6,437 nt of DNA from a virus (lineage: Duplodnaviria > Heunggongvirae > Uroviricota > Caudoviricetes), in the IMG/VR virus record IMGVR_UViG_2671181134_000002, positions 1-6,437 of that record. The stretch is one strand, 5' to 3'. This document shows, piece by piece, positions 1 to 6,437 of this stretch. The notes below the pieces were generated by a model. The model was not told the DNA's origin and made no database searches. It saw nothing but the letters and a program-made list of their open reading frames with translations. The first letter of the stretch is position 1, and the number at the start of each line of letters is the position of its first letter. The translations under genes were made by a program, and so were the position numbers.

Positions 1-518
1 ACGAACTGGTTGTTAAAGGGATAAATAATTACCCGGATAAGATTACTGTTACTGTGGCACTGGAAACGGGTGGGTATACGTCACTGTTGTTGCCAAATGT
101 GGTGATTGATCTTGATCGTGTTGAAGGTGCCCCGCTGGAGTTTTACGAAGCTGAGGCGAAAAAGAAGGCGAAGCAGTTTTTCATGGATATTTCTGCCGGG
201 TTATGTGAAGGGGATGAGCAGTCGCCGGAAAAGCGCCCCATAATTTTAGAGGCGCAGGATGTGTTGATAACCTACAGAGGAAAACTACCGGGAATAATTA
301 CTGGTTCTCTGAAGACGCCACCGACGGCATTGCGGTCAGAAAACGATGATATTGAATCACGCATTGAAAAACTGGAGTGCTATATCGCTGAATTGAAAAA
401 AAGCACCCCAACAAAAAATGAGGTGCTTGCAGCAGATGAAATGAAAGAAACTATTCTTGATCGCGCGGCGCATCTAAGCTGCGCTTCACTGTTGAAAGAG
501 CATCTTCAGCAGCCTTGA
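1..518 (+). CDS. Hypothetical protein, 3' portion only (ORF open to the window start; N-terminus lies upstream)
   Basis: Frame 3 is open from position 3 with no stop until TGA at 516-518, so the track's Met at 54 is probably internal. Hydrophilic, charged, helix-rich translation with no motif I recognise. Region is visibly more AT-rich than the terminase genes. Confidence 0.5.
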   Translation, partial: ELVVKGINNYPDKITVTVALETGGYTSLLLPNVVIDLDRVEGAPLEFYEAEAKKKAKQFFMDISAGLCEGDEQSPEKRPIILEAQDVLITYRGKLPGIITGSLKTPPTALRSENDDIESRIEKLECYIAELKKSTPTKNEVLAADEMKETILDRAAHLSCASLLKEHLQQP

Positions 519-690
519 GGAATCTTTTATCATCACGAGCAACTGTCTTTGGTATTTCTTTAATTAGATGTTCCATTTCGGCGATCAGGTAATCTGACAC
601 AGCGTTATTTTTACTTAGTGCATCCATTGCTTTGATTATCTTTGCGAGGCAGCCATCTCGCATTGTTGAGTTTACGCCAGTGCCCACCAC
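451..690 (-). CDS. Hypothetical small protein (70-79 aa), doubtful; convergent with and overlapping the 3' end of the 1-518 ORF
   Basis: Track ORF begins with a GTG at 690; first ATG is at 663. Translation is amphipathic and helix-like, but I find no Shine-Dalgarno before either start and it overlaps the opposite-strand ORF by 68 nt. Confidence 0.25.
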   Translation of the reverse strand: MVGTGVNSTMRDGCLAKIIKAMDALSKNNAVSDYLIAEMEHLIKEIPKTVARDDKRFLKAAEDALSTVKRSLDAPRDQE

Positions 691-751
691 TGGCGGGCTG
701 AAGACTTAACATATCCAGGGATTCGGAACCGATAAATCCTGATAAATATCC

Positions 752-1285
752 ATGAACGCAAAAATCAGATACGGCCTGTCGGCTGTCGTTCTGGCGCTGA
801 TTGCCGCAGGGGCTTCTGCGCCTGAAATCCTCGACCAGTTTCTGGATGAAAAGGAAGGTAACCACACCACGGCATACCGTGATGGTGCGGGTATCTGGAC
901 CATCTGCCGTGGAGCCACCCGGGTGGATGGTAAGCCTGTGATTCCTGGCATGAAGCTGTCGAAGGAAAAATGCGACCGGGTTAACGCTATCGAACGGGAT
1001 AAGGCGCTGGCATGGGTGGCGAAAAACATCAGAGTGCCACTGACCGAACCTCAGAAAGCGGGGATCGCGTCATTCTGTCCGTACAACATTGGTCCCGGTA
1101 AGTGTTTCCCGTCGACGTTTTACAGACGAATTAATGCTGGTGATCGCAGGGGAGCATGCGAGGCGATTCGCTGGTGGATTAAGGACGGTGGCAGGGACTG
1201 CCGTATCCGCTCAAATAACTGTTACGGTCAGGTATCCCGGCGTGATCAGGAGAGCGCGCTGGCGTGCTGGGGAATCGACAGATAA
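752..1285 (+). CDS. R: SAR endolysin (phage lysozyme, R21/T4-lysozyme-like, GH24)
   Basis: 177 aa. N-terminal hydrophobic Gly/Ala-rich signal-anchor-release segment (YGLSAVVLALIAAGASA). Catalytic E-x8-D-x5-T arrangement in EGNHTTAYRDGAGIWTICRG. Central and C-terminal blocks (RRINAGDRRGACEAIRWW, RRDQESALACWG) resemble phage 21 R as I recall it. Confidence 0.9.
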   Translation: MNAKIRYGLSAVVLALIAAGASAPEILDQFLDEKEGNHTTAYRDGAGIWTICRGATRVDGKPVIPGMKLSKEKCDRVNAIERDKALAWVAKNIRVPLTEPQKAGIASFCPYNIGPGKCFPSTFYRRINAGDRRGACEAIRWWIKDGGRDCRIRSNNCYGQVSRRDQESALACWGIDR

Positions 1286-1375
1286 GAAGAATATTTTGCT
1301 GAAAAATGACGTTGGCCAACGCGGGCGGATAACACGAAATCCTGCGAACTGGCAAAACCTAAGTGAATAAAAGTA

Positions 1376-1416
1376 AAAACCCCGTTTGTTGGCAGCAAGC
1401 GGGGTTTTGTGTTTCT
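1376..1416. terminator. Putative intrinsic terminator, possibly bidirectional
   Basis: Perfect 9-bp stem AAAACCCCG (1376-1384) / CGGGGTTTT (1400-1408), followed by a T-rich tract TTTTGTGTTTCT and preceded by an A-tract. Confidence 0.5.
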
Positions 1417-1441
1417 GACCTTGGATAAGGCAAGGGAAAAC

Positions 1442-1624
1442 ATGGAAAAGTATAAACGAATTCTGTTGAGGTTGACTATGAAAAACGGCCTTGAACTGAA
1501 AGCGCCTGTAACTGATGACATCAGCAGAGCGCTGGCTTTTGCTATTAAGTGGGTGGCGGTCGGTATTGCTGTGTCTCCGATGCTGTATGGACTAGCAAAA
1601 CTGGTCATTGCGTTGAAATCGTGA
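1442..1624 (+). CDS. Small membrane protein inside the lysis cassette (possible holin/antiholin-like or lysis accessory protein)
   Basis: Track ORF 1409-1624, but 1409 lies inside the terminator hairpin. ATG at 1442 is preceded by AAGGGA about 6 nt upstream. 60 aa with a charged N-terminus and one long C-terminal hydrophobic segment (AFAIKWVAVGIAVSPMLYGLAKLVIAL). Confidence 0.4.
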   Translation: MEKYKRILLRLTMKNGLELKAPVTDDISRALAFAIKWVAVGIAVSPMLYGLAKLVIALKS

Positions 1625-1636
1625 AGAGGATTAAGC

Positions 1637-1780
1637 ATGTCAGACAAGCGTCATAACGCTGGCGAAGATCCTCTGTGTAATCGTCGGCATTTCATTTTCA
1701 CTAATGCTGGTTGCTATTTTTCTTTCCCTGGGCTGGATGATGTTGTCTTCGTCGGGGATGCTGGGGTGAGGGGGATATGA
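1637..1780 (+). CDS. Hypothetical 47-aa ORF, translationally coupled to Rz
   Basis: ATG 1637 preceded by AAGAGGA; stop TGA 1778-1780 overlaps the Rz ATG (1777-1779) as ATATGA. Below the ORF-track size cutoff; translation [47 protein letters not shown] has no recognisable motif. Confidence 0.2.
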
Positions 1781-2244
1781 ACCGTGTTCTGTGTGTGGTG
1801 ATTATTGTCCTGCTGGTGGCCTGTGGTGCGCTTAGTCTGGGGCTGAATCATTACCGCGATAACGCCATCACCTACAAAGCGCAGCGAGATAAAAAAGCCA
1901 GAGAGCTGGAGCTGGCAAACGCAACCATTACTGATATGCAGGTGCGCCAGCGCGATGTTGCTGCGCTCGATGCAAAATACTCGAGGGAATTAGCTGATGC
2001 GAGAGCTGAAAATGAAACTCTGCGTGCTGATGTTGCCGCTGGTCGTAAGCGCCTGCGGATCAACGCCACCTGCCACGGTACCGTGCGTGAAGCCACCGGC
2101 ACCTCCGGCGTGGATAATGCAACCGGCCCCCGACTGGCAGACACCGCTGAACGGGATTATTTCACCCTCAGAGAGCGGTTGATGCTGATGCAGAAGCAGC
2201 TGGAAGGGGCACAGGACTATATCCGCACTCAGTGCCTGAATTAA
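1777..2244 (+). CDS. Rz: Rz i-spanin (inner-membrane spanin subunit)
   Basis: 155 aa. N-terminal transmembrane helix ([20 protein letters not shown]) followed by a charged coiled-coil periplasmic domain; sits just downstream of the endolysin; contains an embedded +1-frame lipoprotein ORF. GAGGGGG Shine-Dalgarno precedes the ATG. Confidence 0.85.
1997..2182 (+). CDS. Rz1: Rz1 o-spanin (outer-membrane lipoprotein), embedded in Rz in a different frame
   Basis: Signal peptide with lipobox L-V-V-S-A-C, then a short proline-rich mature domain ([34 protein letters not shown]). True start may be the internal ATG at 2012 ([15 protein letters not shown]). Confidence 0.8.
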
Positions 2245-2246
2245 CA

Positions 2247-2272
2247 GAGCCAGCTTAATCGCTGGCTTTTTC
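2247..2272 (+). terminator. Putative intrinsic terminator downstream of Rz
   Basis: Stem GCCAGC (2249-2254) / GCTGGC (2261-2266) with a 6-nt loop, followed by TTTTT (2267-2271). Begins 3 nt after the Rz stop. Confidence 0.45.
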
Positions 2273-2319
2273 ATATCTGAATTTCACCGCGCATCTCACG
2301 CGCATATCACATCCCCGAG

Positions 2320-2411
2320 CCTTTCAGAAAGTTGAGCCTGAGAACTGCCGTATATGGTGGCGACCATCTCGGGGCGGCTTTTCTGTGAGACAGGCTCAAT
2401 TTTCTGAAAGG
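2320..2411 (+). promoter_or_regulatory. Near-perfect 21-bp inverted repeat bracketing the rha 5' leader; right arm overlaps the rha ribosome-binding site
   Basis: CCTTTCAGAAAGTTGAGCCTG (2320-2340) versus CAGGCTCAATTTTCTGAAAGG (2391-2411): 20 of 21 positions complementary, 50-nt spacer. Right arm contains AAAGG about 9 nt before the rha ATG at 2421. Confidence 0.4.
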
Positions 2412-2420
2412 TAAAACGCG

Positions 2421-2987
2421 ATGAACTATCCGACGATTGTTGACGGTATTGATTTTCGCCAACTGGTAACAGCGGCAGATGGCGAACCAATAACAGACTC
2501 TTTTCAGATCGCTAAGGCGTTTGGTAAGCGTCATGCGGACGTATTGAGGGCGCTGAAAAATTGCCATTGCTCTGAAGATTTCCGGAGAGCGCATTTTTGC
2601 GTTGCCGAAAAAATCAATGAGTTAGGGATTTTCGACAAGAAGCAGATTTACTACCGCATGGACTTTAGCGGCTTCGTTATGCTGGTTATGGGATTTAACG
2701 GGGCAAAAGCTGATGCCGTTAAAGAAGCCTATATTAATGCCTTTAACTGGATGTCCGCTGAACTCCGTAAGTTCAGTGAAAGTTATGAAGCTGAACGCAA
2801 CGCTGTAATGCTGGAGTACATGAAAGAGAAAGATGTTGCCAGTATGTCAGGTCGTTTGCTCAATCGCTGGGGCAGGGTGAAGAAGCCTCAGTTGCTGGCA
2901 AGGCTGGACAGGCTGGACAGGCTGGACAGGCTGGAGCAGCAGGGGCAGATTGCGTTACCCGGATTTGATAAAGGCATTTCAGCCTGA
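2421..2987 (+). CDS. rha: Rha-family phage regulatory protein
   Basis: 188 aa. N-terminal region (DGEPITDSFQIAKAFGKRHADVLRAL) matches the conserved Rha/ORF6 N-terminal domain as I recall it. Variable C-terminus carries an (RLD)n repeat. Confidence 0.8.
   Translation: MNYPTIVDGIDFRQLVTAADGEPITDSFQIAKAFGKRHADVLRALKNCHCSEDFRRAHFCVAEKINELGIFDKKQIYYRMDFSGFVMLVMGFNGAKADAVKEAYINAFNWMSAELRKFSESYEAERNAVMLEYMKEKDVASMSGRLLNRWGRVKKPQLLARLDRLDRLDRLEQQGQIALPGFDKGISA
2894..2938 (+). repeat. 9-bp tandem repeat GCTGGACAG inside rha (three perfect copies flanked by two degenerate ones)
   Basis: Perfect copies at 2903-2911, 2912-2920 and 2921-2929; degenerate copies GCTGGCAAG (2894-2902) and GCTGGAGCA (2930-2938). 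Encodes LARLDRLDRLDRLEQ in frame. Confidence 0.85.
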
Positions 2988-3177
2988 CATAGCCATGCGC
3001 CGTATCGTCGCCGTATTCCTGCATTAACAGAGACCGCAGCCCGACAGGGAGACTCCTCTGCGCGAGTGTGCGGGGATAATCAAAAACGATGCACACCGGG
3101 GTTTACCGCGTTAACGGAGCGCGGCGTTGTCCCCTCATAGTCGCCTGTCCGGTGCGATGGTGGAAGAAACCGAACGT

Positions 3178-3378
3178 TCATTTCTCGTTATTTTTCATGC
3201 TGGCCGGGCGCAGATGCGTTGCATCTGTTGCCAGCCTTCTCCTGCAGGCTTCAATAACCCACGCTGAAAAGTTACCGGACCCTTTATGCTCAAGGGCTAT
3301 GTTGATTTGTTCAATTATGTGATTGGGGAAACGGATATTGCGGGTTGTGGTTCTGCGGGTCCGGTTTTTCGATGACAT
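3178..3378 (-). CDS. Ribbon-helix-helix (Arc/MetJ/CopG-type) DNA-binding protein, reverse-oriented
   Basis: 66 aa. NIRFPNHIIEQINIALEHKGSGNFSAWVIEACRRRL fits the RHH pattern: beta-strand, helix A, a G-S-G-N turn, helix B (compare Arc NLRWP...NGRSVNSEIYQRV). AAGGA lies about 8 nt before the ATG on the minus strand. Confidence 0.6.
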   Translation of the reverse strand: MSSKNRTRRTTTRNIRFPNHIIEQINIALEHKGSGNFSAWVIEACRRRLATDATHLRPASMKNNEK

Positions 3379-3398
3379 ATTTATTTCCTTTACTGATT

Positions 3399-3408
3399 GT
3401 CATATGAC
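3399..3408. promoter_or_regulatory. Perfect 10-bp palindrome GTCATATGAC in the 41-bp gap between the divergent RHH and HNH start codons
   Basis: Direct reading of the sequence. Lies in the leader of both divergent genes. Confidence 0.3.
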
Positions 3409-3419
3409 GGGGATTTTAC

Positions 3420-3785
3420 ATGGCTGAGCTTCGTACACTCCAGAGCAGAATCAAAACACTGAATACCCGACGGGTGAATATTCTGAAGGGGGAACAGCGT
3501 CGTGTCAGTGGCAGTGCACGTGTTTCCCTCAAGCGTCATATCTGGCTCAGGGACGCCGGGCAGTGCTGTCTCTGTGGTCGTGTGGTTGACCTCTGTGACA
3601 GTGAACTTGATCACCGAATTGCACTTCAGTTCGGTGGTGGTAATGAGGAGACGAATCTCTGGACGCTCTGTACCGAATGCCATCGACAAAAGTCTGCTCG
3701 TGAAGCGGCGGGTGGTATGCCGGACCCGACGCTGCCGGAGGTGTCCGGAGGTAGTGGCAGAGCGGACGACATCATCGGACTGTAA
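3420..3785 (+). CDS. HNH endonuclease (phage packaging-associated)
   Basis: 121 aa. Two Cys pairs (CCLCG, CTECH) flank the HNH core SELDHRIALQFGGGNEETNLWTLCTECHRQK. Sits immediately upstream of the terminase genes, as in HK97-type cos phages. Confidence 0.85.
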   Translation: MAELRTLQSRIKTLNTRRVNILKGEQRRVSGSARVSLKRHIWLRDAGQCCLCGRVVDLCDSELDHRIALQFGGGNEETNLWTLCTECHRQKSAREAAGGMPDPTLPEVSGGSGRADDIIGL

Positions 3786-3876
3786 CCCGACCCGGGGGGG
3801 GATCATCCGGCGTAAAAAACGATCGCTCCGGACACCGCGCCCCCTCTCACGCAGAGAAAAAATTCCCGTTTCAGGG

Positions 3877-4004
3877 CAGTTAACATGTTAACTGGCTGCC
3901 CGGGCATTTTTGCGGTTTTTATCTTTATTATTCAGTTTGTTGTGCGGAAAAAATGTTAACTGGCTTTTTCAGCAAATGTTAACCAGGCAGCAGTTAACAT
4001 TTGC
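3877..4004. repeat. Array of GTTAAC-containing palindromes and inverted repeats; candidate terminase-binding / cos-proximal region
   Basis: 18-bp perfect palindrome CAGTTAACATGTTAACTG (3877-3894); TGCCCGGGCA palindrome (3897-3906); ATGTTAACTGGC (3953-3964); 12-bp perfect inverted repeat GCAAATGTTAAC (3972-3983) / GTTAACATTTGC (3993-4004) with a 9-bp spacer. Confidence 0.45.
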
Positions 4005-4074
4005 GGCATGAGACGCCGGGAAAAATGGGCTGAACCATACCCGGCTGAGTGCGTTCTGGACCCGGGAGGAGGCT

Positions 4075-4785
4075 GTGCTGACAACGCAAAAACGAAAATT
4101 TGCGCTGGCGCTCATGTCCGGGAAAAACAAAACAGCGTCAGCCATTGCCGCCGGTTATTCGGCGAAGACCGCCAGGGTTAAAGGCTCACAGCTGGCAAAA
4201 GATCCGGAGGTGCTTGCGTTTATAGCCCGTAAACAATGCGAGACGGTGGAGGTGGATGAGGTTCCTGTTTACCGGCAGAAAAAATCAGAGCAGGAGGATA
4301 AACCCCGTCGCCGTGAGGCGGCTGCAATACCACAGCCGGACGAAAACAATCCGGAGGTGCTTGCGTTTATAGCCCGTAAACAATGCGAGACGGTGGAGGT
4401 GGATGAGGTTCCTGTTTACCGGCAGAAAAAATCAGAGCAGGAGGATAAACCCCGTCGCCGTGAGGCGGCTGCAATACCACAGCCGGACGAAAACAATCCG
4501 GAGATGCCACCGTCCGCGGTGATGTCTCCTGGTATTGAATATATGGAGGATGGTCTTCCCGATCCGGTGAAAGCCATGGGGCGGATCCTGGTGGAAAACC
4601 TCTGCATTGATCCGAAACTGGCACTGGATGCGGCCTGGCGTCTGGCGCAGTTCACGCACCATAAAAAAGGGGATACCGGGAAAAAATCGGCAAAAGGTGA
4701 TGCCGCGAAAAAAGCGGCTAACCGTTTTGCTGTGCCACCGCCACCCCGACTGGTGGTGAATAACGATAATGAGGGAAACGGATGA
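4075..4785 (+). CDS. terS: Terminase small subunit (P27 / Terminase_2-type)
   Basis: GTG start preceded by GGGAGGAGG. N-terminus KRKFALALMSGKNKTASAIAAGYSAKTARVKGSQLAKDPEV carries the AGYSAKTA helix-turn-helix signature of this family. Stop overlaps the terL start as ATGA (4782-4785). Contains an internal 49-aa perfect duplication. Confidence 0.85.
   Translation: MLTTQKRKFALALMSGKNKTASAIAAGYSAKTARVKGSQLAKDPEVLAFIARKQCETVEVDEVPVYRQKKSEQEDKPRRREAAAIPQPDENNPEVLAFIARKQCETVEVDEVPVYRQKKSEQEDKPRRREAAAIPQPDENNPEMPPSAVMSPGIEYMEDGLPDPVKAMGRILVENLCIDPKLALDAAWRLAQFTHHKKGDTGKKSAKGDAAKKAANRFAVPPPPRLVVNNDNEGNG
4204..4497 (+). repeat. Perfect 147-bp direct tandem duplication (2 copies) inside terS
   Basis: 4204-4350 and 4351-4497 are identical base for base by my alignment. 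In frame, duplicating PEVLAFIARKQCETVEVDEVPVYRQKKSEQEDKPRRREAAAIPQPDENN. Junctions carry the 8-bp microhomology ATCCGGAG at 4202-4209, 4349-4356 and 4496-4503. Confidence 0.9.
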
Positions 4786-6437
4786 TACCTGTATGGAGCA
4801 CAGCCTGCCCGGACTGGGCAGAGCGCCTGAAAAAGGGGCTGTCGATTATTCCGGATCCGATTTATCCGGACGAGGCCGCACATGCCCTGGCGATTTTTAA
4901 ACAACTGCGGATAGTGGATGCACCTGGTAGCCCTACGTTCGGGGAGTCCTGTGCACCGTGGGTGTTTGACCTGGTGGCGGCCCTGTTTGGCTCCTACGAT
5001 GCGCAGACCGGTGTACGCCATATCAAGGAAGTTTTTATCCTTATCCCCAAGAAAAACAGCAAGTCCACGCTGGCTGCCGGGATCATGATGACGGCGCTGT
5101 TACTGAACTGGCGGCAGGCGGCGGGCTACACCATTCTGGCCCCGACCGTGGAGGTGGCGGCTAACGCCTTCAACCCTGCCAGGGATATGGTTCGACGGGA
5201 CGATGATCTGGATGACCTCTGTCAGGTGCAGACACATATCCGGACCATCACCCATCGGGTGACGGACACCACCCTGAAGGTGGTGGCAGCCGATCCGAAT
5301 ACGGTGTCCGGTATCAAGTCCGTGGGGACACTGATTGATGAACTGTGGCTGTTTGGCAAGCAGTACAAAGCGGAAGACATGTTACGTGAAGCCATCGGCG
5401 GGCTTGCCTCCCGTCCGGAAGGATTTGTGGTGTATACGACCACCCAGTCGAATGAACCGCCCGCCGGGGTGTTCAGACAGAAACTGCAGTACGCCCGGGA
5501 TGTGCGCGACGGCAAAATTCATGATCCGCACTTTCTGCCGGTGATATTTGAACACCCTCCTGAAATGGTGGAAAGCGGAGCTCACCTGCTGATGGAAAAC
5601 CTCGCCATGGTCAATCCGAATCTCGGCTATTCAGTGGATGAGGCTTTTCTGTGCCGGGAGTACCGTAAAGCCCGGGAAGCCGGTGAAGATACATTCCGGG
5701 GGTTCATGTCAAAACACGCCAATGTGGAAATTGGTCTTGCCCTGCGTTCTGACCGCTGGGCGGGTGCGGATTTCTGGGAGCAGCAGGGCAGGCGCGTCAG
5801 CCTGGACGATATCCTGCAGCGCGCTGATGTGGTGACGGTGGGGATTGACGGCGGGGGCCTGGATGATCTGCTGGGAATGTACGTGATTGGCCGTGACAGG
5901 GAAACCCGCGAATGGCTGGGCTGGGGCCATGCCTGGGCGCATGAAACCGCGGTGGTCAGACGGAAGAGTGAGGCATCCCGTTTTCAGGATTTTGTGGCCT
6001 GTGGAGACATGACGATTGTCCGTCGGGTCGGGGATGACACGGCGGAAGTGGCGGAGTATGTGCGTCGTATTCATGAGGCTGAGTTACTGGATCATATCGG
6101 TATTGACCCGTCAGGTGTGGGGCAGATTCTGGATTCACTGGCGGAAGCCGGGATCCCCGACGGAATTGTTGTGGGGATAAGCCAGGGCTGGAAGCTGGGC
6201 GGGGCCATCAAAACCACCGAGCGCAAACTGGCTGAGGGAGTGCTGGTGCATGGTGGTCAGCCACTGATGGCCTGGTGCGTTGGCAATGCCCGGGTGGAGC
6301 CTAAAGGTAACGCCATCCTTATTACCAAACAGGCCAGCGGACGGGGGAAAATTGACCCGCTGATGGCGCTGTTCAATGCGGTATCCCTGATGTCCCTGAA
6401 TCCGGAGCCCAAAAAGAAAGAATATGCGGTTTTTTTC
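4782..6437 (+). CDS. terL: Terminase large subunit, 5' 552 codons (open to the window end)
   Basis: Frame open from ATG 4782 to the end of the window, so absent from the ORF track. Walker A-like VFILIPKKNSKSTLAAG, Walker B-like TLIDELWLF, and nuclease-domain motif VVTVGIDGGGLDD. Start overlaps the terS stop. Confidence 0.9.
   Translation, partial: MIPVWSTACPDWAERLKKGLSIIPDPIYPDEAAHALAIFKQLRIVDAPGSPTFGESCAPWVFDLVAALFGSYDAQTGVRHIKEVFILIPKKNSKSTLAAGIMMTALLLNWRQAAGYTILAPTVEVAANAFNPARDMVRRDDDLDDLCQVQTHIRTITHRVTDTTLKVVAADPNTVSGIKSVGTLIDELWLFGKQYKAEDMLREAIGGLASRPEGFVVYTTTQSNEPPAGVFRQKLQYARDVRDGKIHDPHFLPVIFEHPPEMVESGAHLLMENLAMVNPNLGYSVDEAFLCREYRKAREAGEDTFRGFMSKHANVEIGLALRSDRWAGADFWEQQGRRVSLDDILQRADVVTVGIDGGGLDDLLGMYVIGRDRETREWLGWGHAWAHETAVVRRKSEASRFQDFVACGDMTIVRRVGDDTAEVAEYVRRIHEAELLDHIGIDPSGVGQILDSLAEAGIPDGIVVGISQGWKLGGAIKTTERKLAEGVLVHGGQPLMAWCVGNARVEPKGNAILITKQASGRGKIDPLMALFNAVSLMSLNPEPKKKEYAVFF

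Follow-up and report, generated by a model that had tools for sequence, protein, structure and literature searches.

The 6,437 nucleotides (nt) of DNA considered here (hereafter the window; positions 1 to 6,437 of IMG/VR virus record IMGVR_UViG_2671181134_000002) are the late region of a lambdoid, Shiga toxin (Stx)-phage-like prophage. The endolysin and Rz genes are followed by a terminator and then by rha, and HNH and terminase genes lie further downstream. The rha product falls within the Rha family, scoring 81.4 bits (E = 7e-23) against PF09669 (Phage_pRha), for which the cut-off is 29.9 bits, and it also matches PF10549 (ORF11CD3) with E = 1e-21. Between the Rz terminator and the rha start codon lies a long inverted repeat, which a preliminary description of the window had proposed to fold in RNA and mask the rha ribosome-binding site. 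That interpretation is incomplete rather than wrong, the hairpin being one layer of a larger RNA. The evidence set out below supports the repeat as the outer stem of a larger leader RNA, which also has a small 5' hairpin (P0), the inner helices H2 and T, and a pair of long-range interactions that likewise covary (Table 1).

The inverted repeat and the leader RNA around it

A repeat search confirmed the repeat as it had been described, with two arms of 21 nt that are 20/21 (95%) complementary, a spacer of 50 nt and the Shine-Dalgarno AAAGG within the right arm. The Shine-Dalgarno ends 9 nt 5' of the rha ATG. The lone mismatch between the arms, G2331/T2400, becomes a G-U wobble in plus-strand RNA, in which all 21 positions pair. 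In 30 dinucleotide shuffles of the window the longest inverted repeat, with at most one mismatch and a spacer of 3-100 nt allowed, was 10-14 nt long compared with the 21 nt observed. The RNA folding that had been suggested as a check was run on positions 2300-2440 and gave a fold of -56.2 kcal/mol (z = -5.0), with 0/200 shuffles as stable; for the opposite strand the fold is slightly weaker, with an energy of -51.8 kcal/mol. In the minimum-energy fold of the window the AGG at 2409-2411 pairs with the CCU at 2320-2322.

Pattern scans of viral contigs recovered 177 distinct leaders in three sequence families: W (the type of the window, phi80 and CUS-3), P (the type of P22, ES18, Stx2-1717 and RothD) and K (the Klebsiella 2b type). 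A covariance model built from P-family leaders alone (R1) finds the leader of the window over its full length at 71.0 bits (E = 2e-17) and also finds every W- and K-type member searched, at 43-71 bits. Since a model made only from the P family detects both of the others, the three sequence families constitute one RNA family. The order of elements is the same in all three, running from the terminator through P0, the 5' strand of P1 (7 nt), the anti-Shine-Dalgarno and left arm, H2, T with its apical domain, the 3' strand of H2 and a 6 nt internal loop to the right arm with the Shine-Dalgarno and finally the ATG. In all 177 distinct leaders the leader ends at the downstream start codon, whatever gene follows. 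Most of the conserved columns lie in helices, and an apical loop of UGGCGA is common to the W and P families but is not found in K or in the divergent second copies described below.

Table 1. Positions of the leader elements and of the surrounding genes in the window
Feature	Position	Strand	Description
Endolysin	752-1285		
Rz	1777-2244		
Rho-independent terminator	2248-2272	+	3' of Rz; stem 2248-2254/2261-2267, then TTTTT; from sequence
Leader RNA, whole	2287-2423	+	about 137 nt; limits from the R1 match, ending with the rha ATG
P0 hairpin	2289-2303	+	stem GCGC 2289-2292 / GCGC 2300-2303; loop AUCUCAC 2293-2299
P0 loop segment UCUCAC	2294-2299	+	complementary to internal loop GUGAGA 2385-2390
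P1 5' strand CCCCGAG	2313-2319	+	directly 5' of the anti-Shine-Dalgarno
Left arm of inverted repeat	2320-2340	+	CCTTTCAGAAAGTTGAGCCTG; first bases CCU 2320-2322 are the anti-Shine-Dalgarno
H2 5' strand AGAA	2341-2344	+	pairs with UUCU 2381-2384 (minimum-energy fold)
Inner helix T	2347-2378	+	GCCG 2347-2350 / CGGC 2375-2378; encloses the apical hairpin and the P1 3' strand
Apical hairpin AUGGU-GGCG-ACCAU	2354-2367	+	inside helix T
P1 3' strand CUCGGGG	2368-2374	+	in the apical loop; abuts the T 3' strand
H2 3' strand UUCU	2381-2384	+	
Internal loop GUGAGA	2385-2390	+	six nt, 3' side; partner of the P0 loop
Right arm of inverted repeat	2391-2411	+	CAGGCTCAATTTTCTGAAAGG; ends in the Shine-Dalgarno AAAGG 2407-2411
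rha	2421-2987	+	188 amino acids; Phage_pRha and ORF11CD3 domains; directly behind the leader
HNH gene	3420-3785		
Small terminase	4075-4785		
Large terminase	from 4782		

The arms diverge between the families yet stay complementary. Those of P22 (CUUUGGAAUGGGCCUUUG and CAAAGGUUCAUUUCAAAG) share little sequence with those of the window, yet 18/18 positions pair, three of them as G-U, and the arms of ES18 show a double change from U-A to G-C. In an alignment of the P family that was not fitted to a model, 97.5% of stem cells (one pair in one sequence) pair, compared with 35-44% when the partner is slid. The corresponding values for a model alignment of 50 leaders are 93.7% and 37-45%, and in this alignment both partners have changed in 25 of the 32 pairs, with a covariation score of 0.434 compared with 0.162 in shuffles. 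The outer stem has double changes at 15/18 pairs in the model alignment, and permutations in which partners were swapped reached the observed arm energy in 0/2000. The P0 stem pairs hold in 97.8-100% of cells, with a compensatory change from C-G to U-A. RNAalifold applied to a plain MAFFT alignment of the three families independently recovers H2 and T with compensatory changes. The AGAA:UUCU of H2 becomes AGGA:UCCU in other families, and T is found as GCCG:CGGC, ACCAG:CUGGU, GUCAG:CUGAC and GCCGG:CCGGU. The long arms were not recovered from this plain alignment because arm indels differ between the families, and arm pairs were counted on family-specific and model-based alignments in its place. 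The G-U cells number 95 compared with 39 A-C cells, which favours the plus strand.

Masking of the Shine-Dalgarno, as had been proposed for the window, is predicted widely in the family, with the AGG paired to the CCU anti-site in the minimum-energy fold of 81 out of 111 distinct leaders. By family, all three Shine-Dalgarno bases are paired in 44/54 W, 16/36 P and 21/21 K leaders, and the mean unpaired probability of the Shine-Dalgarno is 0.13, 0.27 and 0.001 respectively. Together with the divergence of arms that remain complementary, this supports the long hairpin of the preliminary description and argues for the translational control that it was thought to imply. Most relatives have two to three mismatches or a bulge in the outer stem, the perfect duplex being a variant of the Stx phages. 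Folding the 5' part alone pairs the left arm with 2375-2389 instead, an alternative that was set aside for want of covariation support to distinguish it.

The first of the two long-range pairings, P1, is formed by the 6-8 nt just 5' of the anti-Shine-Dalgarno and a segment of the apical loop, and is present in 177/177 distinct leaders. The duplex always stops at the base before the anti-Shine-Dalgarno. At least ten sequence versions of P1 occur, among them CCCCGAG:CUCGGGG (window), CGAGAG:CUCUCG (phi80), CCACCGA:UCGGUGG (P22), CGUCGA:UCGACG, CACAGAA:UUCUGUG and CCAAGAA:UUCUUGG, and its middle pairs show three to four Watson-Crick types. The second pairing joins the P0 loop to the internal loop. 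In 166 distinct leaders the two loops fall into several classes of variants, all of which can pair: 51 leaders have AUCUCAC and GUGAGA, 48 have (A/G)UCGCA and GUGCGAA or GUGCGAC, and further classes combine ACCGCA with GUGCGG and NNCGCAC with GUGCGA. The helices that result are UCUCAC:GUGAGA, UCGCA:UGCGA, CCGCA:UGCGG and UCGCAC:GUGCGA. This contact has 96.2% of cells paired and double changes in 2/5 pairs. For P1 and the P0-loop contact together, 91.7% of cells in a model alignment made for these two helices pair compared with 29-59% in slid controls, and the covariation score is 0.565 compared with 0.154. When partners were permuted the observed mean energy was reached in 0/2000 for P1 and in 8/2000 for the P0 loop. 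The preliminary description had also drawn attention to a direct repeat, CGCGCAT, upstream of the arms. The repeat is present and its second copy lies at 2299-2305 as reported, but the first copy is at 2288-2294 and not 2287-2293; it is not an independent feature because the two GCGC strands of the P0 hairpin produce it.

Distribution of the leader and its cargo genes

The 200 nt stretch that begins at the Rz terminator and runs to the rha ATG is matched, with 80-98% identity, in approximately 150 phage records. These include phi80, HK106, CUS-3, P22-like Salmonella phages and phages of Klebsiella, Enterobacter, Hafnia and Citrobacter, and across ten diverse aligned phages the leader is better conserved than the coding sequence downstream of it. 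The Rz terminator is the conserved 5' neighbour of the leader; it aligns in relatives and is an annotated terminator in phi80, HK106 and ES18. Of 5426 complete Escherichia coli genomes 528 (approximately 10%) carry a W-type leader, annotated as RNA in none of them, and leaders are also present in Pantoea and Rouxiella. A contig scan with a 15-base core (596 gigabases) was dominated by chance matches and yielded three true ones (Pantoea, Rouxiella and the locus L214), with the taxonomic range under-sampled. Conservation of the repeat upstream of rha, which the preliminary description had wished to see examined, is thus borne out in the phage records and the E. coli genomes. Absence from related loci had been named as an argument against a role in rha expression; since the repeat is found at related rha and antirepressor-type loci, that argument falls.

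One member of the P family has been encountered before as a transcript. P22F is a small RNA of phage P22, 89 nt long and on the plus strand, whose 3' end lies 6 nt before the rha ATG (Naaz et al., 2026; PMC13397905). It was seen by RNA sequencing (read counts) and by reverse transcription PCR and was assigned 'no known function' (PMC13397905). P22F is the P22-type divergent homologue of approximately 2328-2415 of the window. The P22F paper (PMC13397905) deals with the same locus in P22, without reference to structure, conservation or a link to the ribosome-binding site.

The leader is not limited to rha, as the open reading frames (ORFs) found behind it encode Phage_pRha, KilA-N, ANT, T5orf172/MUG113 or HNH_3 domains. 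One rha N-terminus is found behind both W-type and P-type leaders (L324), which implies that the module travels as a cassette. From such comparisons the terminator and leader together appear to move as a single cassette with cargo of DNA-binding, antirepressor and homing-endonuclease type. In Escherichia phage Lyz12581Vzw (L376), an Stx2 phage, two copies of the leader lie on the minus strand at 12370-12506 and 13737-13872; a W-type copy precedes rha (70.8 bits) and a K-type copy (53.5 bits) precedes an antirepressor gene inserted between R and Rz. The window has no insertion of this kind between 1286 and 1776. Tandem modules of leader plus cargo gene are also present in L169 (3517-3648 and 4844-4974), L010 (7323-7457 and 8513-8625), L273, L275 and L079. 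The divergent second copies in these five loci score 30-50 bits and keep every helix with new sequences; that of L275, for example, has CCACAGAG:CUCUGUGG as P1 and CGCUC:GAGCG as the P0-loop pairing.

As a separate observation, at approximately 650-680 of Stx2-converting phage 1717 (L252) the P0 hairpin AUGCGU-ACCGCA-ACGCAU is followed by six to eight U residues. In this subtype P0 and the U run look like a second intrinsic terminator directly behind the Rz terminator.

A proposed two-state gate on translation and its alternatives

The reading that we favour, with moderate confidence, is that the leader is a cis-acting RNA of the late antiterminated lysis transcript and acts as a two-state gate on translation of rha, a gene whose product is harmful to the growth of the phage. 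Transcription would most likely be Q-antiterminated late transcription that reads through the Rz terminator into the leader. In some members the U run of the terminator is only 2 nt from P0 and therefore leaves no room for a promoter there, which points to read-through, and a promoter scan of 2100-3500 found no sigma-70-like site. A candidate sigma-70 promoter within the leader itself (TTGAGC...TATATG) was discarded because its two elements are wrongly spaced, the phi80 type does not conserve it and the scan was negative. In the proposed closed state the left arm would pair with the right arm so that CCU 2320-2322 covers AGG 2409-2411 and ribosomes are excluded, with H2 and T stacking on the outer stem to give a stack of approximately 29 base pairs (bp). 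In the open state 2313-2319 would pair with 2368-2374 to form P1 and peel the anti-site off the Shine-Dalgarno, so that P1 might be termed an 'anti-anti-Shine-Dalgarno'. Topologically P1 crosses the long hairpin. It would be compatible with T, H2 and approximately the inner 8 bp of the stem but incompatible with the outer stem, because its 5' strand joins the base of the stack without a linker while its partner sits at the top. Geometry and rough nested-model energies thus suggest that P1 and the outer stem are probably mutually exclusive, and it is because P1 abuts the anti-Shine-Dalgarno strand and probably excludes the outer stem that the leader is read as a two-state gate. The pairing of the P0 loop (2294-2299) with 2385-2390 may brace one or both states.

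The energies of the two duplexes can be accommodated by this reading. The outer stem and P1 have mean duplex energies of -10.0 and -10.3 kcal/mol, correlated with a Spearman coefficient of 0.53, and such similar and correlated values would fit a balance between two states. Rough nested-model energies place the closed-minus-open gap of W-family leaders anywhere between -0.5 and -18.4 kcal/mol, the value of -18.1 for the window being close to the extreme. The stem of the window being perfect, its gate would be strongly biased to OFF, and the perfect repeat is accordingly predicted to be an unusually OFF-biased variant of the family.

Several considerations weigh against a gate. Control of rha translation is deduced here from structure only, and for certain leaders of the P and CUS-3 types the predicted fold leaves part of the AGG unpaired. 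Nested-model energies make the closed state the more stable one in every case, so that the open state would come into play only through kinetics or with the help of a factor. A single fold whose outer stem is partly open could also hold P1 and the P0-loop contact as tertiary contacts. The 39 A-C cells would be G-U pairs on the opposite strand. Both of the large alignments used for counting were fitted to models, which inflates pairing, and the sequences are related and mosaic, with the result that the shuffle controls overstate significance. Rha is known to poison phage growth in hosts without integration host factor (IHF), and Henthorn and Friedman are reported to have linked rha to IHF in 1995, a link that the leader model leaves unexplained.

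A bolder version of the gate, which we put forward tentatively and think rather doubtful, is that the leader is a bistable, riboswitch-like sensor in which a signal shifts the closed stem to a pseudoknot of P1 and the P0-loop pairing and so times synthesis of the cargo gene. The signal, equally tentative and offered jointly with the sensor itself, might be a nucleoid or RNA-binding protein of the host, some metabolite, the pace of the antiterminated RNA polymerase or a processed, trans-acting RNA resembling P22F. The first of these would account for the old IHF dependence of the Rha phenotype. On this account terminator, P0 and switch would together make up a portable cassette for expression, by which genes for antirepressors, KilA-N, Rha and homing endonucleases pass from phage to phage.

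The P22F transcript is also the starting point for a different explanation, which we consider unlikely, namely that the leader adopts one static compact fold in which P1 and the P0-loop pairing are tertiary contacts and whose role lies in RNA processing, stability or action in trans. It might for example let RNase III or RNase E enter and so separate rha from the lysis mRNA, or it might give rise to a stable small RNA like P22F that works at another site. An 89 nt species, reaching from inside the left arm to just before the ATG, does accumulate in P22 infection, although its boundaries come from small-RNA read mapping alone. The duplex of the window is uninterrupted over 21-22 bp and, from general knowledge of its substrates, long enough for RNase III, and the greater stability of the closed state in the nested model also suits a single fold. 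However, two to three mismatches interrupt the outer stem in most relatives and a perfect RNase III substrate is therefore not a conserved feature. A fold containing both the full stem and P1 would also seem sterically implausible, with the linkerless 5' strand of P1 at the base of the stack of approximately 29 bp and its partner at the top, and conservation that extends past the Shine-Dalgarno as far as the ATG, irrespective of which gene follows, points to a role in cis. Transcription attenuation, with T and the UUUUCUGUG behind it (2375-2387) serving as intrinsic terminator or pause site and P1 as antiterminator, is improbable. A GC-rich GCCG/CGGC stem followed by a U-rich run can be seen in W, P and K, but the apparent U run covaries as the 3' strand of H2 (AGAA:UUCU, AGGA:UCCU, GGCAAA:UUUGCC and GGGAAA:UUUCCC) and is not U-rich in divergent copies such as that of L275. 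The T stem has a 24 nt structured loop, a terminator scan finds no terminator in the leader and, by geometric analysis, P1 does not compete with T.

Explanations at the level of DNA are disfavoured and fare worse still. The preliminary description had allowed that the arms might be paired operator half-sites, and the element might accordingly bind a repressor (possibly Rha itself) or IHF, or extrude as a cruciform. The palindrome-like repeat is perfect in the window and rha is reported in literature of 1995 to be regulated by IHF. Against this, arm sequence is not kept across the families while complementarity is, including in the 95 G-U cells, which are mismatches in DNA; no match to the IHF consensus WATCAANNNNTTR with one mismatch or fewer was found in 2240-2430, window-wide matches being at chance level; nothing promoter-like is present on which an operator could act; and the covarying P1 and P0-loop pairings make sense in a single strand only. 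The operator proposal is on these grounds very improbable and was dropped. We give slightly less credence again to the idea that the 92 bp unit is a miniature transposable element with 21 bp terminal inverted repeats. It has inverted repeats flanking a short non-coding core and many copies across genomes, but there is no target-site duplication at 2311-2319 / 2412-2420, all 179 copies that were parsed or detected by the model lie directly before a start codon with the same P0 hairpin upstream, the same terminator lies upstream in the loci examined, and the variation is compensatory and not neutral.

Few cargo genes of temperate phages, the Shiga toxin phages, P22 and phi80 included, are as common and as poorly understood as those for proteins of the Rha, KilA-N, ANT and Bro-N types. 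Should the leader indeed gate translation, it would provide a concrete and mutable handle on when and why these proteins are made, its five helices would suit defined compensatory tests, and the 40-year-old puzzle of Rha and IHF would become directly testable. The leader would also add a large uncatalogued family of structured RNA, spread across the Enterobacterales, to phage annotation, and its terminator-plus-leader module seemingly travels as one cassette with different cargo genes.

Known regulatory systems and neighbouring features

No Rfam 15 family matches 2287-2423 of the window, the chance-level matches lying elsewhere; representatives searched besides the window were the P22, phi80, CUS-3 and Klebsiella copies. 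Models of C4, IsrK and sRNA-Xcc1 gave no match with E of 1 or less, either in the window or in L251, L254, L001 and L002, and no text describing the rha leader was found in the literature. The class of mechanism, sequestration of a Shine-Dalgarno with a competing pairing, is known, whereas the leader family and its geometry are uncatalogued.

Among the closest functional analogues, the c4 antisense RNA of phages P1 and P7 with its icd-ant leader is similar in that an RNA lies directly upstream of antirepressor, Bro-N or Rha-type genes on the same transcript (PMC7313666) and in that access of ribosomes is governed by two short upstream segments, which pair with two others further downstream (Citron and Schuster, 1990, via PMC7313666). 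The related IsrK and sRNA-Xcc1 elements likewise precede genes of these types. The c4 system differs in that c4 is a processed RNA of 77 nt, whereas the upstream partners in the rha leader are the loop of a 15 nt hairpin and a 7 nt strand, and in that the main repressing element of the rha leader would be an intramolecular stem of 18-21 bp acting in cis. The isrK-orf45-anrP region of Gifsy-1 in Salmonella likewise has a prophage antirepressor-type mRNA that is translationally inactive, blocked by structure, until the RNA rearranges. The behaviour of its leader was reportedly described by Hershko-Shalev and colleagues in 2016. IsrK lies after a Q-like gene and is a separate short transcript, whereas the putative activating partner in the rha leader, the 5' strand of P1, is in cis. 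The IsrK analogy has also been drawn by the authors of the P22F study (PMC13397905).

Other parallels come from established knowledge. In the bistable or pseudoknot leaders of E. coli rpsO (S15), IncI-alpha repZ and IncB repA, a hairpin that hides the ribosome-binding site is set against, or remodelled by, a long-range pairing that joins a hairpin loop to a remote strand adjoining that site. The pseudoknots of repZ and repA use a strand beside the Shine-Dalgarno and are enabled by a leader peptide and blocked by an antisense RNA, and in rpsO one conformer is trapped by a protein. In the rha leader, by contrast, the loop pairs with a strand beside the anti-Shine-Dalgarno; a leader peptide is absent, and neither an antisense RNA nor a protein is known to act on it. 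The lambda N leader is similar in having a long duplex that occludes the ribosome-binding site and that processing by RNase III can relieve. In the rha leader family, by contrast, a perfect duplex is confined to the Stx-phage variant and has not been conserved more widely.

A number of further features were seen in the window outside the leader. Between the endolysin and Rz genes, at 1366-1440, there is a GC-rich hairpin with flanking A and T runs (AAAACCCCGTTTGTTGGCAGCAAGCGGGGTTTTGTG), for which the sole Rfam signal was to rimP-leader at chance level (25 bits, E = 0.79). The 3' part of rha contains a 9 bp tandem repeat of AGGCTGGAC, present in 3.9 copies at 2901-2935 (RLDRLDRLDRLE); the length of this region differs in the closest E. 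coli relatives, which suggests variation in copy number. Within the small-terminase ORF a tandem duplication of 147 bp at 4202-4507 (2.1 copies, 99% identical) repeats 49 amino acids in frame (PEVLAFIARKQCETVEVDEV...PQPDENN twice). On the minus strand at 3178-3378 an ORF of 66 amino acids (...NIRFPNHIIEQINIALEHKGSGNFSAWVIEACRRRL...) looks like a small protein of the ribbon-helix-helix or YlcI-YnfO type. Finally, between the HNH and small-terminase genes, the motif (A)ATGTTAAC(TG) is clustered in both orientations at 3876-4004, forming five inverted pairs and three direct families, and these motifs are plausibly the terminase or cos recognition sites of an HNH-dependent packaging system.

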